Positions 2,193 through 45,271 of a stretch of 64,000 nucleotides of DNA are shown piece by piece; position 1 is the stretch's first letter, and every line of letters starts with the position of its first letter. A program made the position numbers and the translations under genes. The DNA is taken from the NCBI RefSeq assembly GCF_054482525.1, contig NZ_CM137006.1; one strand, 5' to 3'. The notes beneath the pieces are model-generated. The model saw nothing but the letters and a program-made list of their open reading frames with translations, searched no databases and was not told where the DNA came from.

Positions 2193-3047
2193 ATGACTGA
2201 CAAAATGCAAAGTTTAGCTTTAGCCCCTGTTGGCAACCTGGATTCCTACATCCGGGCAGCTAACGCGTGGCCGATGTTGTCGGCTGACGAGGAGCGGGCG
2301 CTGGCTGAAAAGCTGCATTACCATGGCGATCTGGAAGCAGCTAAAACGCTGATCCTGTCTCACCTGCGGTTTGTTGTTCATATTGCTCGTAATTATGCGG
2401 GCTATGGCCTGCCACAGGCGGATTTGATTCAGGAAGGTAACATCGGCCTGATGAAAGCAGTGCGCCGTTTTAACCCGGAAGTGGGTGTGCGCCTGGTCTC
2501 CTTCGCCGTCCACTGGATCAAAGCAGAGATCCACGAATACGTTCTGCGTAACTGGCGTATCGTCAAAGTTGCGACCACCAAAGCGCAGCGCAAACTGTTC
2601 TTCAACCTGCGTAAAACCAAGCAGCGTCTGGGCTGGTTTAACCAGGATGAAGTCGAAATGGTGGCCCGTGAACTGGGCGTAACCAGCAAAGACGTACGTG
2701 AGATGGAGTCGCGTATGGCGGCACAGGACATGACCTTTGACCTGTCTTCCGACGACGATTCCGATAGCCAGCCGATGGCTCCGGTGCTCTATCTGCAGGA
2801 TAAATCATCTAACTTTGCTGACGGCATCGAAGATGATAACTGGGAAGAGCAGGCGGCAAACCGTCTGACCGACGCGATGCAAGGTCTGGACGAGCGTAGC
2901 CAGGATATCATCCGCGCGCGCTGGCTGGATGAAGACAACAAGTCCACGTTGCAGGAACTGGCTGACCGTTACGGTGTTTCCGCTGAGCGTGTGCGCCAGC
3001 TGGAAAAGAACGCGATGAAAAAACTTCGCGCTGCCATTGAAGCGTAA
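2193..3047 (+). CDS. rpoH: RNA polymerase heat-shock sigma factor sigma-32
   Basis: 284-aa [54 protein letters not shown]; canonical length. Confidence 0.97.
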
Positions 3048-31777: not shown

Positions 31778-33073
31778 ATGGTTAGTTTAGAGAAGAACGA
31801 TCACTTAATGTTGGCGCGCCAGCTGCCATTGAAATCTGTTGCCCTGATACTGGCGGGAGGACGTGGTACCCGCCTGAAGGATTTAACCAATAAGCGAGCA
31901 AAACCGGCCGTACACTTCGGCGGTAAGTTCCGCATTATCGACTTTGCGCTGTCTAACTGCATCAACTCCGGGATCCGTCGTATGGGCGTGATCACCCAGT
32001 ACCAGTCCCACACTCTGGTGCAGCACATTCAGCGCGGCTGGTCATTCTTCAATGAAGAAATGAACGAGTTTGTCGATCTGCTGCCAGCACAGCAGAGAAT
32101 GAAAGGGGAAAACTGGTATCGCGGCACCGCAGATGCAGTTACCCAAAACCTCGACATTATCCGCCGTTATAAAGCGGAATACGTGGTGATCCTGGCGGGC
32201 GACCATATCTACAAGCAAGACTACTCGCGTATGCTTATCGACCACGTCGAAAAAGGCGCACGTTGCACCGTTGCTTGTATGCCAGTACCGATTGAAGAAG
32301 CCTCCGCATTTGGCGTTATGGCGGTTGATGAGAACGATAAAATTATCGAATTCGTTGAAAAACCAGCTAACCCGCCGTCAATGCCGAACGATCCGAGCAA
32401 ATCTCTGGCGAGTATGGGTATCTACGTCTTTGACGCCGACTATCTGTATGAACTGCTGGAAGAAGACGATCGCGATGAGAACTCCAGCCACGACTTTGGC
32501 AAAGATTTGATTCCCAAGATCACCGAAGCCGGTCTGGCCTATGCGCACCCGTTCCCGCTCTCTTGCGTACAATCCGACCCGGATGCCGAGCCGTACTGGC
32601 GCGATGTGGGTACGCTGGAAGCTTACTGGAAAGCGAACCTCGATCTGGCCTCTGTGGTGCCAGAACTGGATATGTACGATCGCAATTGGCCAATTCGCAC
32701 CTACAATGAATCATTACCGCCAGCGAAATTCGTGCAGGATCGCTCCGGTAGCCACGGGATGACCCTTAACTCACTGGTATCCGGCGGTTGTGTGATCTCC
32801 GGTTCGGTGGTGGTGCAGTCCGTTCTGTTCTCGCGCGTTCGCGTGAATTCATTCTGCAACATTGATTCCGCCGTATTGTTACCGGAAGTATGGGTAGGTC
32901 GCTCGTGCCGTCTGCGCCGCTGCGTCATCGATCGTGCTTGTGTTATTCCGGAAGGCATGGTGATTGGTGAAAACGCAGAGGAAGATGCACGTCGTTTCTA
33001 TCGTTCAGAAGAAGGCATCGTGCTGGTAACGCGCGAAATGCTACGGAAGTTAGGGCATAAACAGGAGCGATAA
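31778..33073 (+). CDS. glgC: glucose-1-phosphate adenylyltransferase GlgC
   Basis: Track ORF 31742..33073 trimmed to [33 protein letters not shown] (431 aa). Confidence 0.94.
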
Positions 33074-34506
33074 TGCAGGTTTTACATGTATGTTCAGAGA
33101 TGTTCCCGCTGCTTAAAACCGGCGGTCTGGCTGATGTTATTGGGGCATTACCCGCAGCACAAATCGCAGACGGCGTTGACGCTCGCGTACTGTTGCCTGC
33201 ATTTCCCGATATTCGCCGTGGCGTGACCGATGCGCAGGTAGTATCCCGTCGTGATACCTTCGCCGGACATATCACGCTGTTGTTCGGTCATTACAACGGG
33301 GTTGGCATTTACCTGATTGACGCGCCGCATCTCTATGATCGTCCGGGAAGCCCGTATCACGATACCAACTTATTTGCCTATACCGACAACGTATTGCGTT
33401 TTGCGCTGCTGGGGTGGGTTGGGGCAGAAATGGCCAGCGGGCTTGACCCATTCTGGCGTCCTGATGTGGTGCATGCGCACGACTGGCATGCAGGCCTTGC
33501 GCCTGCGTATCTGGCGGCGCGCGGGCGTCCGGCGAAGTCGGTGTTTACTGTGCACAACCTGGCCTATCAAGGCATGTTTTATGCACATCACATGAATGAC
33601 ATCCAATTGCCATGGTCATTCTTTAATATTCATGGGCTGGAATTCAACGGACAAATCTCTTTTCTGAAGGCCGGTCTGTACTATGCCGATCACATTACGG
33701 CAGTCAGTCCAACCTACGCTCGCGAGATCACCGAACCGCAGTTTGCCTACGGTATGGAAGGTCTGTTGCAACAGCGTCACCGTGAAGGGCGTCTTTCCGG
33801 CGTACTGAACGGCGTGGACGAGAAAATCTGGAGTCCAGAGACGGACTTACTGTTGGCCTCGCGTTACACCCGCGATACGTTGGAAGATAAAGCGGAAAAT
33901 AAGCGCCAGTTACAAATCGCAATGGGGCTTAAGGTTGACGATAAAGTGCCGCTTTTTGCAGTGGTGAGCCGTCTGACCAGCCAGAAAGGTCTCGACCTGG
34001 TGCTGGAGGCCTTACCGGGTCTTCTGGAGCAGGGCGGGCAACTGGCGCTACTCGGCGCGGGCGATCCGGTGCTGCAGGAAGGTTTCCTTGCGGCGGCAGC
34101 GGAATACCCCGGCCAGGTGGGCGTTCAGATTGGCTATCACGAAGCATTTTCGCATCGCATTATGGGCGGCGCGGACGTCATTCTGGTGCCCAGCCGTTTT
34201 GAACCGTGCGGCTTAACGCAACTTTATGGATTGAAGTACGGTACGCTGCCGTTAGTGCGGCGCACCGGTGGGCTTGCTGATACGGTTTCTGACTGTTCTC
34301 TTGAGAACCTTGCAGATGGCGTCGCCAGTGGGTTTGTCTTTGAAGATAGTAATGCCTGGTCGCTGTTACGTGCTATTCGACGTGCTTTTGTACTGTGGTC
34401 CCGTCCTTCACTGTGGCGGTTTGTGCAACGTCAGGCTATGGCAATGGATTTTAGCTGGCAGGTCGCGGCGAAGTCGTACCGTGAGCTTTACTATCGCTTG
34501 AAATAG
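33073..34506 (+). CDS. glgA: glycogen synthase GlgA
   Basis: 477-aa [25 protein letters not shown]; 1-nt overlap with the glgC stop. Confidence 0.96.
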
Positions 34507-40498: not shown

Positions 40499-41257
40499 AT
40501 GAAACAAACACAACGTCACAACGGTATTATCGAACTGGTTAAACAGCAGGGTTATGTCAGTACCGAGGAACTGGTGGAGCACTTCTCCGTCAGCCCGCAG
40601 ACTATTCGTCGCGACCTCAACGAGCTGGCAGAGCAAAACCTGATCCTGCGGCATCATGGCGGTGCGGCGCTGCCTTCCAGTTCGGTTAACACGCCTTGGC
40701 ACGATCGTAAAGCCACCCAGACCGAAGAAAAAGAGCGGATTGCCCGCAAAGTGGCGGAGCAAATCCCCAATGGCTCAACGCTGTTTATCGATATTGGCAC
40801 CACGCCGGAAGCGGTGGCGCACGCGCTGCTCAATCACAGCAATTTGCGCATTGTGACTAACAATCTCAACGTCGCTAACACGCTGATGGTAAAAGAGGAT
40901 TTCCGTATTATTCTCGCCGGTGGCGAATTACGCAGCCGCGATGGCGGGATCATTGGCGAAGCGACACTCGATTTTATCTCCCAGTTCCGCCTTGATTTCG
41001 GCATTCTGGGGATCAGCGGCATCGATAGCGACGGCTCGTTGCTGGAATTCGATTACCACGAAGTTCGCACCAAACGCGCTATTATTGAAAACTCGCGCCA
41101 CGTTATGCTGGTTGTCGATCACTCGAAATTTGGCCGTAACGCGATGGTCAATATGGGGAGCATCAGCATGGTTGATGCTGTCTACACCGACGCCCCGCCG
41201 CCAGTAAGCGTCATGCAGGTGCTGACGGACCATCATATTCAACTGGAGCTGTGCTGA
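40499..41257 (+). CDS. glpR: glycerol-3-phosphate regulon repressor GlpR (DeoR family)
   Basis: 252-aa ORF MKQTQRHNGIIELVKQQGYVSTEELVEHFSVSPQTIRRDL. Confidence 0.94.
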   Translation: MKQTQRHNGIIELVKQQGYVSTEELVEHFSVSPQTIRRDLNELAEQNLILRHHGGAALPSSSVNTPWHDRKATQTEEKERIARKVAEQIPNGSTLFIDIGTTPEAVAHALLNHSNLRIVTNNLNVANTLMVKEDFRIILAGGELRSRDGGIIGEATLDFISQFRLDFGILGISGIDSDGSLLEFDYHEVRTKRAIIENSRHVMLVVDHSKFGRNAMVNMGSISMVDAVYTDAPPPVSVMQVLTDHHIQLELC

Positions 41258-42837
41258 TCCTGCACGGCTTCCCACGTCAGACCAAAACGCGCCAGGTATT
41301 TGCGTAGCCGATCTGCGTCGTTGACGCTGGCTTTGCCCTGGCGCGAAACATCAAAAAGCTGGCGACCGGCAGCAGAAAGCGATTTTGCCTGGCGGCAGAT
41401 GGCTATTACGTGTTCCAGTTGCAGCCGATCAAAGAGGTCGATGTTTTCTGCCTCAGCGCCCAGCAGTTGCGTAATCGCGGAGGGGCGACTCTCCTGCCAG
41501 TTATAGCGCAGACGGTTTATCTCATCTTCTACGGTTTCCAGAGTAATGCACCCGCTATCGGCAAAGGTTGCCATCCGCGTGACGCTGGCAGAAAGTTCTC
41601 GAAAGTTACCGCGCCATGTTGCCTGGGGAGATGTCGCAAAAGCCAGCCAGGCGCGCCGTGCTTCGGTGTTAAAACGCACGCTGTCGCCGGTGAGTGAGGC
41701 GTGGCGCTCCACTTCATAATCCAGGTTAGGTTCAATATCTTCCTGGCGCTGGCGCAGTCCCGGCAGGGTGAAGGTCCAGAGATTGATCCGCGCGTACAGA
41801 TCTTCGCGAAATTTGCCTTCAGCAACCAGCTGGCGCAAATCGCGCACCGTTCCGGCGATCAGCTGAAAATCACTGCTCACCTGGCGATCGCTGCCAAATG
41901 GGTAAAAGGTTTTCTCTTCAATGGCTTTCAGCAACATCGCCTGTTCGTCTGCGCCCAGTTCGCCAATCTCATCAAGAAACAACATGCCACCGTTGGCGCT
42001 GCGTAATAATCCTTCACGAGATTCCCGCGCCCCGGTAAACGCGCCTTTCACATGACCAAACAGCGTCGACATGGCGGTATCGCCGCGCAGGGTGGCGCAG
42101 TTCACTTCCACAAACGCGCCGCTAAACTGATGCCGCGCCTGTTTTAATTCGAAGATGCGTCGTGCCAGAAACGACTTGCCCGCACCGGTCGGGCCGTTAA
42201 GCAGGATCGGTGCGCGGGATTTGATCGCCACTTTTTCGATCTGCTCAATCATGCGGTTGAAGTGGGGGTTGCGTGTGGCAATGCCGGATTTGAGGAAGTC
42301 GAGGGTTTGCTGGCGTTCCTCGGCAAAGCGGCTGGCGATGGCGTTATAACGGCTTAAATCGAGATCGATAATCGTCACTTCACCTGCGCCGCGCGGTTGT
42401 TCTTTTTTGCGCGGTGGTGAAGATTGTATCAACCGGGCGGGTAGATAACGCGCTTCTGCCAGCAGAAACCAGCAAATCTGCGCGACGTGGGTACCGGTGG
42501 TGATGTGAATTAAATAGTCTTCTTTTTCTGGCTGGAACGCGTAACCACGGGCGAAATCATGCAGGCAGGCGTAAACCTCTTCGAAATCCCACGGGTTATG
42601 CAGTTCTATCTCAACGCCCACCACTTCTGTTTCTGGCGAAACGCTGGCGATATCGCGTTTAAGCGTTTCGAATAGCGAGCGCGAGCGGGCGTCATGCAAC
42701 AATTCCAGCCGATCGATAACTAACGATTCTTGCTGGCATAGACAGAGTGTCGGACGCCATTTTGACCAGCGCTGACTGCCGCGCCCGGCATAATCCAGCA
42801 CCGTTCCGACAAAACCAAAAGCCACTGTTTTACGCAT
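41239..42837 (-). CDS. rtcR: sigma54-dependent transcriptional activator RtcR
   Basis: 532 aa; AAA+ core GPTGAGKSFLARRI and GAFTGA motif; convergent overlap with glpR. Confidence 0.94.
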   Translation of the reverse strand: MRKTVAFGFVGTVLDYAGRGSQRWSKWRPTLCLCQQESLVIDRLELLHDARSRSLFETLKRDIASVSPETEVVGVEIELHNPWDFEEVYACLHDFARGYAFQPEKEDYLIHITTGTHVAQICWFLLAEARYLPARLIQSSPPRKKEQPRGAGEVTIIDLDLSRYNAIASRFAEERQQTLDFLKSGIATRNPHFNRMIEQIEKVAIKSRAPILLNGPTGAGKSFLARRIFELKQARHQFSGAFVEVNCATLRGDTAMSTLFGHVKGAFTGARESREGLLRSANGGMLFLDEIGELGADEQAMLLKAIEEKTFYPFGSDRQVSSDFQLIAGTVRDLRQLVAEGKFREDLYARINLWTFTLPGLRQRQEDIEPNLDYEVERHASLTGDSVRFNTEARRAWLAFATSPQATWRGNFRELSASVTRMATFADSGCITLETVEDEINRLRYNWQESRPSAITQLLGAEAENIDLFDRLQLEHVIAICRQAKSLSAAGRQLFDVSRQGKASVNDADRLRKYLARFGLTWEAVQDQHSSS

Positions 42838-42970
42838 CTTAGATATCCTTATAAAAGACGATATTTCATTATCGGTAAATTGGCTTTGCGGGAAATCTCC
42901 GTTTACGGACGTAAAGATTTAATCTGTTAAAAACAATGAATTAAAAAATTAAGCTGCTTAATTAATTTTC

Positions 42971-42986
42971 TGGAACGACGGTTGCA
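42971..42986 (+). promoter_or_regulatory. sigma54 (-24/-12) promoter for rtcBA
   Basis: TGGAACGACGGTTGCA: GG and GC elements separated by 10 nt, about 40 nt upstream of rtcB. Confidence 0.75.
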
Positions 42987-43024
42987 ATTATCAGGACAGC
43001 AAACAACGAAAAGAGAAAAACAAA

Positions 43025-44251
43025 ATGAATTACGAATTACTGACCACTGAAAATGCCCCGGTAAAAATGTGGACCAAAGGCGTACCGGTAGAGGCCGATG
43101 CACGTCAGCAACTTATTAATACGGCGAAGATGCCGTTTATTTTCAAACATATTGCGGTAATGCCTGATGTACACCTGGGTAAAGGTTCCACCATTGGTAG
43201 CGTGATCCCGACCAAAGGGGCGATTATTCCGGCGGCGGTGGGCGTGGATATCGGTTGTGGAATGAACGCGCTGCGTACCGCGTTAACGGCGGCAGACCTG
43301 CCTGAAAACCTGGCGGAACTGCGTCAGGCGATTGAAACAGCCGTGCCGCACGGGCGTACTACCGGACGTTGTAAACGTGATAAAGGCGCATGGGAAAATC
43401 CGCCTGTTAACGTCGATGCGAAATGGGCTGAGCTGGAAGCCGGTTATCAGTGGTTAACGCAAAAATATCCCCGTTTCCTTAACACTAACAACTATAAACA
43501 CCTGGGAACGCTGGGAACGGGTAACCACTTTATTGAAATCTGCCTTGATGAATCGGACCAGGTGTGGATTATGCTGCACTCCGGTTCACGCGGAATCGGT
43601 AATGCCATCGGAACTTACTTTATCGATCTGGCGCAAAAAGAGATGCAGGAAACGCTTGAAACATTGCCGTCGCGTGATCTGGCGTACTTTATGGAAGGTA
43701 CGGAATACTTTGATGATTACCTGAAAGCCGTGGCCTGGGCGCAGCTTTTTGCCAGCCTTAACCGCGATGCGATGATGGAAAACGTGGTAACGGCGTTGCA
43801 GAGCATTACGCAGAAAACGGTCAGACAGCCACAAACGCTGGCGATGGAAGAGATCAACTGTCACCACAACTATGTGCAAAAAGAACAGCACTTTGGTGAA
43901 GAGATCTACGTGACGCGTAAAGGCGCGGTGTCTGCGCGTGCTGGTCAATATGGAATTATTCCCGGTTCGATGGGGGCGAAGAGCTTTATCGTCCGTGGGC
44001 TGGGAAATGAAGAGTCGTTCTGTTCGTGCAGCCACGGTGCCGGGCGGGTTATGAGCCGTACCAAAGCGAAAAAACTGTTCAGCGTGGAAGATCAAATTCG
44101 TGCCACCGCGCATGTGGAATGCCGTAAAGATGCCGAAGTGATCGACGAAATCCCGATGGCGTATAAAGATATTGATGCGGTGATGGCGGCACAAAGCGAT
44201 CTGGTGGAAGTTATCTACACCCTGCGTCAGGTGGTGTGCGTAAAAGGATAA
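43025..44251 (+). CDS. rtcB: RNA-splicing ligase RtcB
   Basis: 408-aa ORF MNYELLTTENAPVKMWTKGVPVEADARQQLINTAKMPFIFKHIAVMPDVHLGKGSTIG. Confidence 0.95.
   Translation: MNYELLTTENAPVKMWTKGVPVEADARQQLINTAKMPFIFKHIAVMPDVHLGKGSTIGSVIPTKGAIIPAAVGVDIGCGMNALRTALTAADLPENLAELRQAIETAVPHGRTTGRCKRDKGAWENPPVNVDAKWAELEAGYQWLTQKYPRFLNTNNYKHLGTLGTGNHFIEICLDESDQVWIMLHSGSRGIGNAIGTYFIDLAQKEMQETLETLPSRDLAYFMEGTEYFDDYLKAVAWAQLFASLNRDAMMENVVTALQSITQKTVRQPQTLAMEEINCHHNYVQKEQHFGEEIYVTRKGAVSARAGQYGIIPGSMGAKSFIVRGLGNEESFCSCSHGAGRVMSRTKAKKLFSVEDQIRATAHVECRKDAEVIDEIPMAYKDIDAVMAAQSDLVEVIYTLRQVVCVKG

Positions 44252-45271
<1,020 letters not shown>

Follow-up and report, generated by a model that had tools for sequence, protein, structure and literature searches.

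A rare A at position -23 in the sigma-54 promoter of the Escherichia coli rtcBA operon, with candidate RtcR enhancer and IHF sites upstream

Within a window of 64,000 nucleotides of Escherichia coli DNA (contig NZ_CM137006.1 of assembly GCF_054482525.1), the sequence at positions 42971-42986 is PrtcBA, the known sigma-54 promoter of the RNA-repair operon rtcBA and the positional orthologue of the promoter found in E. coli K-12. The module formed by rtcR, sigma-54 and rtcBA has been textbook material since 1998, the year in which Genschik et al. are said to have described the K-12 promoter, and because the module is so long known the promoter call in itself is of little import. The additions that we can make to it are only these: a rare allele at -23 with a predicted weakening of the promoter, and candidates for the RtcR enhancer and the IHF site. 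To the reading as a whole, in which PrtcBA, served by these candidate upstream elements, would be weakened by its TGGAAC hexamer and yet remain an RtcR-dependent unit, we assign a probability of about 0.85.

The rtcBA promoter and the genes around it

The gene neighbourhood in the window runs glpG-glpR-rtcR / rtcB-rtcA / malT, and the features on which the argument rests are the following.

41239-42837, minus strand: rtcR, 532 amino acids, intact; a sigma-54 enhancer-binding activator with a CARF sensor, an AAA+ domain and a C-terminal HTH
42971-42986, plus strand: the rtcBA sigma-54 -24/-12 promoter, TGGAACGACGGTTGCA, that is, TGGAAC-GACGG-TTGCA
42997, plus strand: predicted transcription start (C42997, with A42996 at -1), giving a 28-nt leader to the rtcB ATG at 43025
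43025-44251, plus strand: rtcB, RNA ligase, 408 amino acids, intact; named RNA-splicing ligase RtcB by RefSeq on the identical PCN033 sequence
44255-45271, plus strand: rtcA, RNA 3'-terminal phosphate cyclase, 338 amino acids

A preliminary description of this DNA had proposed a sigma-54 element here, divergent from rtcR and upstream of rtcB and rtcA, with exact spacing between a -24 GG and a -12 GC. The gene assignments bear out this placement: the rtcR product matches the NCBIfam RtcR equivalog NF038308 over residues 1-527 (849 bits, cut-off 650), the rtcA product matches NF003247 (772 bits), and the rtcB product, whose NCBIfam RtcB-family matches all fall under the curated cut-offs, is identified by the RefSeq annotation of the PCN033 sequence, which also covers rtcR and rtcA. 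(For rtcA, 44255 is the annotated start; an in-frame ATG lies at 44252.) The spacing likewise stands, with GG at 42972-42973 and GC at 42984-42985 in the canonical GG-N10-GC geometry. What the description overlooked is that the -24 hexamer is TGGAAC and not the reference TGGCAC. The promoter lies 134 nt from the divergent rtcR start, and the cognate AAA+ activator is present at full length. The predicted start follows the rule of PMC4591121 (the C of the GC doublet plus 12 nt, which equals the motif centre plus 19 nt), and A42996/C42997 are compatible with the ApC primer used at -1/+1 of native PrtcBA (PMC9650030). No Rfam family matches in 42600-43300.

Alignment with K-12 MG1655 shows that the rtcR-rtcB intergenic region is 97% identical and that the promoter stands in the same place. 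The K-12 site, CTGGCACGACGGTTGCA, is ChIP-seq peak OS35, with an occupancy score of 17 (Bonocora et al. 2015, PMC4591121); its predicted start likewise lies 28 nt before rtcB, and the same study marks the site as having experimental confirmation in EcoCyc (PMC4591121). Transcription of rtcBA from this sigma-54 promoter is activated by the divergently encoded RtcR, with an upstream activating sequence (UAS) and an IHF site (Kotta-Loizou et al. 2022, PMC9650030).

The same arrangement recurs well beyond E. coli. An RtcR protein scan with one genome per species returned 29 loci, from Escherichia, Klebsiella, Intestinirhabdus, Superficieibacter, Iodobacter, Accumulibacter, Pseudomonas, Verrucomicrobia and Desulfobacterota, and 26 of them were scored with the sigma-54 matrix. 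In about 20 of the 26, the best sigma-54 match upstream of rtcR is divergent in strand, stands 128-198 nt away from the rtcR start and in every case begins TGGCA(C/T); another locus has it at 414 nt. The promoter has thus been kept at the same place from Proteobacteria to Verrucomicrobia and Desulfobacterota, which indicates that the module is ancient and its layout fixed. Because the K-12 promoter is experimentally confirmed and RtcR loci have a promoter in the same place, the window site is known biology, as had been said from the outset of this compact pairing of an RtcR activator with its sigma-54 target (K-12 OS35, PMC4591121; PMC9650030). In the Intestinirhabdus, Superficieibacter (about 2 kb) and Pseudomonas loci, a gap of about 1.7-2 kb separates the sigma-54 promoter from rtcB, consistent with a putative insertion of the Salmonella rsr/Y-RNA type.

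An A at position -23 in a single E. coli lineage

The departure from the reference hexamer lies at 42974, position -23, where the window has A and K-12 has C. A 501-bp query across the rtcR-rtcB junction finds matches in 4,856 of 5,426 complete E. coli genomes and none in the other 570; the only 100% identities are with PCN033, SCU-102 and 19KM1776. Since these three carriers are pig, human and dog isolates and are identical across 22 kb, the A is genuine, not an artefact of sequencing. Counting exact 32-mers over the same 5,426 genomes, at an E-value limit that exact matches alone pass, gives 3 genomes for the A allele and 4,492 for the C allele; 55-nt megablast queries had failed to separate the alleles, since mismatched genomes still matched. 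Some other 32-mer is found in about 360 locus-bearing genomes, and three that were sampled differ at -30, with the core unchanged.

Strains 7/2 and VCSW5, which are 99% identical over 501 bp and stand closest to the lineage among genomes that do not belong to it, have C at position -23. The base is also C in four other Escherichia species, in three other enterobacterial genera and in three divergent E. coli strains, and it is C in all 27 other E. coli and orthologous loci compared. Judged from these genome comparisons, the A is a lineage-specific substitution, and this rare allele is an addition to the known promoter.

The change may instead be functionally neutral, the promoter working as in K-12 and the A being one of many lineage-specific changes, a reading that we regard as rather unlikely and that draws on the divergence of the lineage. 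The next-best complete genomes are 98.5% identical to the carriers over 22 kb, so that SCU-102, 19KM1776 and PCN033 stand about 1.5% away from every other complete genome; with a lineage so well separated, a single change within 16 bp would not by itself be surprising under drift. The intergenic region holds two lineage-private changes in 187 bp, at 42974 and 42926, a number that matches the background divergence.

Predicted effect of the A at -23

Examination of published sigma-54 sites weighs against neutrality, in that the C at -23, invariant in every other sequence compared, is also invariant in all the intergenic promoters of two species: it is present in 28 of 28 Salmonella promoters and in 70 of 70 across two published sets, with A in none of 42 intergenic-sense and none of 8 intergenic-antisense sites of E. 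coli. Over all 135 bound E. coli sites, the base is C in 99, T in 26, A in 10 and G in none. The ten A sites are all intragenic and have occupancy scores of 1-2, compared with a median of 5 for C sites (Mann-Whitney p = 6e-4). When log occupancy in the K-12 ChIP-seq data is regressed on the score of the rest of the site, A has 0.21 times the occupancy of C, or 0.37-0.43 times when an intragenic indicator is added or the regression is confined to intragenic sites. No confidence interval includes 1, and the estimates are correlations taken from other sites in another strain, with ChIP scores truncated at the peak-calling threshold. A literature search found no direct mutational data for a C-to-A change at -23.

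Because A sites show about 2.5-5-fold lower occupancy in K-12 ChIP-seq, the A at -23 is predicted to lower sigma-54 occupancy of PrtcBA by a like factor, and the promoter is probably weakened, not dead. Several observations temper this prediction and lean back towards neutrality. A base other than C stands at -23 in 36 of the 135 bound sites, and the strong K. oxytoca nifH promoter has T at this position (PMC12096077); the window site is otherwise intact, its GG and GC doublets included. Moreover, activator-driven output may be insensitive to closed-complex occupancy, in which case the change would be neutral.

At the other extreme, the promoter could be effectively silenced, leaving rtcBA cryptic in this lineage, at the initial stage in the loss of a dispensable system; we consider this decidedly improbable. 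The native rtcBA promoter is already "very weak in vitro" (PMC9650030), so that a several-fold loss could leave near-silence. With our main sigma-54 matrix, built from 28 Salmonella intergenic promoters (PMC3844500, Table 3) with the orthologous rsr site excluded, the window site scores 13.95 bits, under the 16.3-23.4 span of its validated training promoters, and the C allele would score 19.6; with an E. coli 134-site matrix it reaches the 19th percentile among bound sites. Of the E. coli sites that have A at -23, all ten stand at the detection threshold. In addition, about a tenth of E. coli strains, the 570 genomes that lack a junction match, appear to have no rtc locus or a much altered one, so that the locus appears dispensable in the species. 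These points are met by TGGAAC sites that are bound in vivo, at ftsQ (ratio 7.6) and rumA (5.5) in Salmonella and at rlmD, ettA, bioB and others in E. coli. Furthermore, RtcR, RtcB and RtcA are intact, with few substitutions relative to K-12 (4 in the first 244 amino acids of RtcR, 1 in RtcB and 12 in RtcA), which argues against decay of the system, and the allele is common to the pig, human and dog isolates, which indicates that it has persisted alongside intact rtc genes.

Weight-matrix scans of the window

A simple pattern search is a poor guide to sigma-54 sites in this DNA. The window contains 8 copies of the consensus TGG-N8-TTGCW where 6.2 +/- 2.4 would be expected, and 29 of 100 shuffles have at least 8; because the pattern does not discriminate, weight matrices were used instead. 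In a matrix scan of the kind that the preliminary description had proposed as a check, the 42971 site comes first of 127,966 window positions (28-promoter Salmonella matrix). With a 69-site matrix, the best three positions are 42971 (rtcB), 33570 (inside glgA) and 2137 (upstream of rpoH), and they are exactly the window's three K-12 sigma-54 ChIP-seq peak sites, OS35, IS43 and OS36 (PMC4591121), a coincidence that validates the scan. The two sites outside the rtc locus are as follows.

33570-33587, plus strand: intragenic sigma-54 site inside glgA (33073-34506), AGGCATGTTTTATGCACA; second-best matrix score
2137-2152, plus strand: rpoH sigma-54 promoter, upstream of rpoH (2193-3047), TGGCACAGTTGTTGCT; third-best matrix score

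The rpoH sequence is identical to the K-12 sigma-54-dependent rpoH promoter, site OS36 (PMC4591121), and the glgA site is conserved as IS43 in K-12 (occupancy score 49) and as STM3535 in Salmonella.

That the rtcBA motif is a chance match, with rtcBA transcribed from a sigma-70 promoter or by read-through, is highly improbable: the unremarkable frequency of the simple pattern and the RtcR-independent increases in rtcBA expression under certain stimuli, possibly through alternative promoters (PMC9650030), would fit it, but the site has the first matrix rank in the window and the orthologous position of a confirmed, ChIP-bound promoter, the element is conserved across phyla, no sigma-70-like hexamer pair was found on either strand of 42700-43150, read-through into rtcBA is impossible because the upstream gene is divergent, and the idea is already contradicted for the K-12 allele.

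Two further motifs were observed inside rtcB. An antisense sigma-54-like sequence, CGGCACGGCTGTTTCAAT (43348-43331, minus strand; 10.9-13.9 bits), is directed towards rtcR and is probably a chance match, since the high-stringency set of K-12 ChIP-seq sites does not include it. At 43121-43136 on the plus strand, about 100 nt into the gene, a terminator-like hairpin precedes a T-rich run; it is also probably due to chance, with one found against 0.6 expected in shuffles.

Candidate enhancer and IHF site upstream of the promoter

Cross-genus alignment of the divergent spacer reveals two conserved islands, namely the -24/-12 core and the 40 nt that adjoin rtcR. The preliminary description had pointed to 42840-42970 as the place to look for activator sites, and inspection of that stretch yields two candidates.

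42842-42874, no strand assigned: candidate RtcR enhancer (UAS), a cluster of GATA/TATC half-sites that adjoins the rtcR start
42931-42943, plus strand: IHF-like core AAACAATGAATTA, one mismatch to WATCAANNNNTTR, centred at about -60, between enhancer and promoter

The candidate enhancer, with half-sites at 42842-42847, 42860-42863 and 42870-42873, contains a palindrome, CGATA-N6-TATCG, at 42859-42874 (custom script), centred at about -130 from the rtcBA start. Across nine aligned sequences from four enterobacterial genera, the arms of this palindrome are invariant and its spacer is variable, and the next 90 nt or so diverge. In 17 taxa, GATA/TATC tetramers number 41 in the 65 nt beside rtcR, compared with 12.4 +/- 3.4 in shuffles, and their density is about ten-fold higher there than distally (3.7 versus 0.35 per 100 nt). 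This pattern of conservation suggests that the cluster is likely the RtcR enhancer. E. coli NRG857C, E5 and ZLWT have CGAGA in place of CGATA in the left arm (window 42859-42863); the same strains have G instead of A at about -30 (42964), with an unchanged -24/-12 core.

Part of this conservation could have another source. The right arm reads GATAAT on the sense strand of rtcR (42873-42868) and so may double as the rtcR -10 element; it could also be the rtcR -10 hexamer instead of part of an enhancer. Since no sigma-70-like promoter was found in 42700-43150, this weak GATAAT candidate is the one assignment available for an rtcR promoter. The conserved island also includes the ribosome-binding region of rtcR, and the candidate enhancer overlaps the region of the rtcR translation start and the putative rtcR promoter.

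The identification of AAACAATGAATTA as a candidate IHF site draws on its recurrence at RtcR loci. A perfect WATCAANNNNTTR, in the same orientation and 17-29 nt before the TGG, is found in 6 of 17 taxa, compared with 0.19 expected, and the Escherichia IHF-like copies lie 27 nt before the TGG. The lineage-private position 42926, which is G in the window, A in the nearest relatives and T in K-12, lies 5 nt upstream of the core. "The rtc IHF binding site" is mentioned without a sequence in PMC9650030. For the UAS and IHF sequences, the supplements of that paper name a construct and give none, and PMC9879122 and PMC7790460 define no enhancer. The GATA/TATC cluster thus offers a concrete candidate for the RtcR DNA-binding site that PMC9650030 mentions without specifying.

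Two other elements of the spacer deserve mention. A 17-bp palindrome, AATTAAGCTGCTTAATT (42947-42963), was rejected as a regulatory site because K-12, with T at the equivalent of 42961, has an imperfect version of it and because its conservation does not extend beyond E. coli; this element, AATTAAGC-T-GCTTAATT, comes after the IHF-like site and before the -24 region and is perfect only in the carrier lineage and its relatives. Closer to rtcR, AAATCTCCGTTTACGGAC (42893-42910), which contains CCGT-TT-ACGG, is shared by every Escherichia species in the comparison, including E. whittamii, whose flanking sequence has diverged, and is not conserved in other genera; it may belong to the rtcR promoter or form a second site for a protein.

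Proposed mechanism

Following the K-12 and Salmonella literature, RNA polymerase-sigma-54 would bind PrtcBA as a closed complex while the divergently encoded RtcR occupies the upstream enhancer, for which the GATA/TATC cluster and palindrome at 42842-42874, centred at about -130, are the candidates. Self-inhibition of RtcR by its CARF domain would be relieved by a damaged-tRNA signal and RtcA/RtcB, after which the RtcR AAA+ ring would hydrolyse ATP. With DNA bending by IHF, presumably at 42931-42943, the closed complex would be remodelled for a start at about 42997. In this scheme, the C-to-A change that creates TGGAAC would reduce sigma-54 occupancy several-fold, most likely without abolishing it, and the operon in the carrier strain would be weaker than the reference and still RtcR-dependent.

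A more specific claim, which we advance tentatively and at somewhat less than even odds, is that PCN033, SCU-102 and 19KM1776 carry a natural down-mutation, with several-fold less sigma-54 at the promoter and a blunted Rtc induction, and that the GATA/TATC cluster is an RtcR enhancer conserved across phyla. If this is true, the lineage would carry a natural hypomorphic form of the Rtc system, which is reported to influence tolerance to ribosome-targeting antibiotics; one report ties it to survival under such drugs (PMC12606134). The A at -23 would also serve as a natural allele with which to gauge the share of an otherwise invariant C in sigma-54 promoter strength, and it could reveal whether Rtc inducibility varies among E. 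coli lineages.

Comparison with known systems

The closest counterpart of the window site is the K-12 rtcBA promoter itself (rtcBp). The two share the locus, the gene order glpR-rtcR / rtcB-rtcA-malT, the position, the 28 nt from predicted start to rtcB and 15 of 16 core bases, and their flanks are identical from -22 through the ATG. They differ in that the window has A for C at 42974 (-23), A for T at 42961 and, in the vicinity of the IHF-like site, G for T at 42926, as well as in a 1-nt indel not far from this last position.

In Salmonella Typhimurium, the orthologous promoter drives rsr-yrlBA-rtcBA (STM3521; PMC3844500, PMC7790460) and, like that of the window, is RtcR-dependent, uses sigma-54, is divergent from rtcR and has a closely similar core. 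This promoter, TGGCACGCTGGTTGCAAT, is induced 71-fold by a constitutive activator (PMC3844500). It serves rsr and Y-RNA genes that precede rtcBA, whereas in the window rtcB follows directly, and it has C at -23 where the window has A.

A third point of reference is the E. coli pspF-pspA pair, in which an activator gene likewise lies beside its sigma-54 target, the enhancer overlaps the activator's own promoter and an IHF site lies between. The rtc locus shares this compact divergent layout, with a candidate enhancer that adjoins or overlaps the activator start and an IHF-like site between enhancer and -24/-12 element. That RtcR might control its own gene through the enhancer is no more than a suggestion. 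The two activators are different members of their family and part ways in how they are controlled: PspF lacks a sensor domain and is kept in check by PspA, whereas RtcR senses through its CARF domain.
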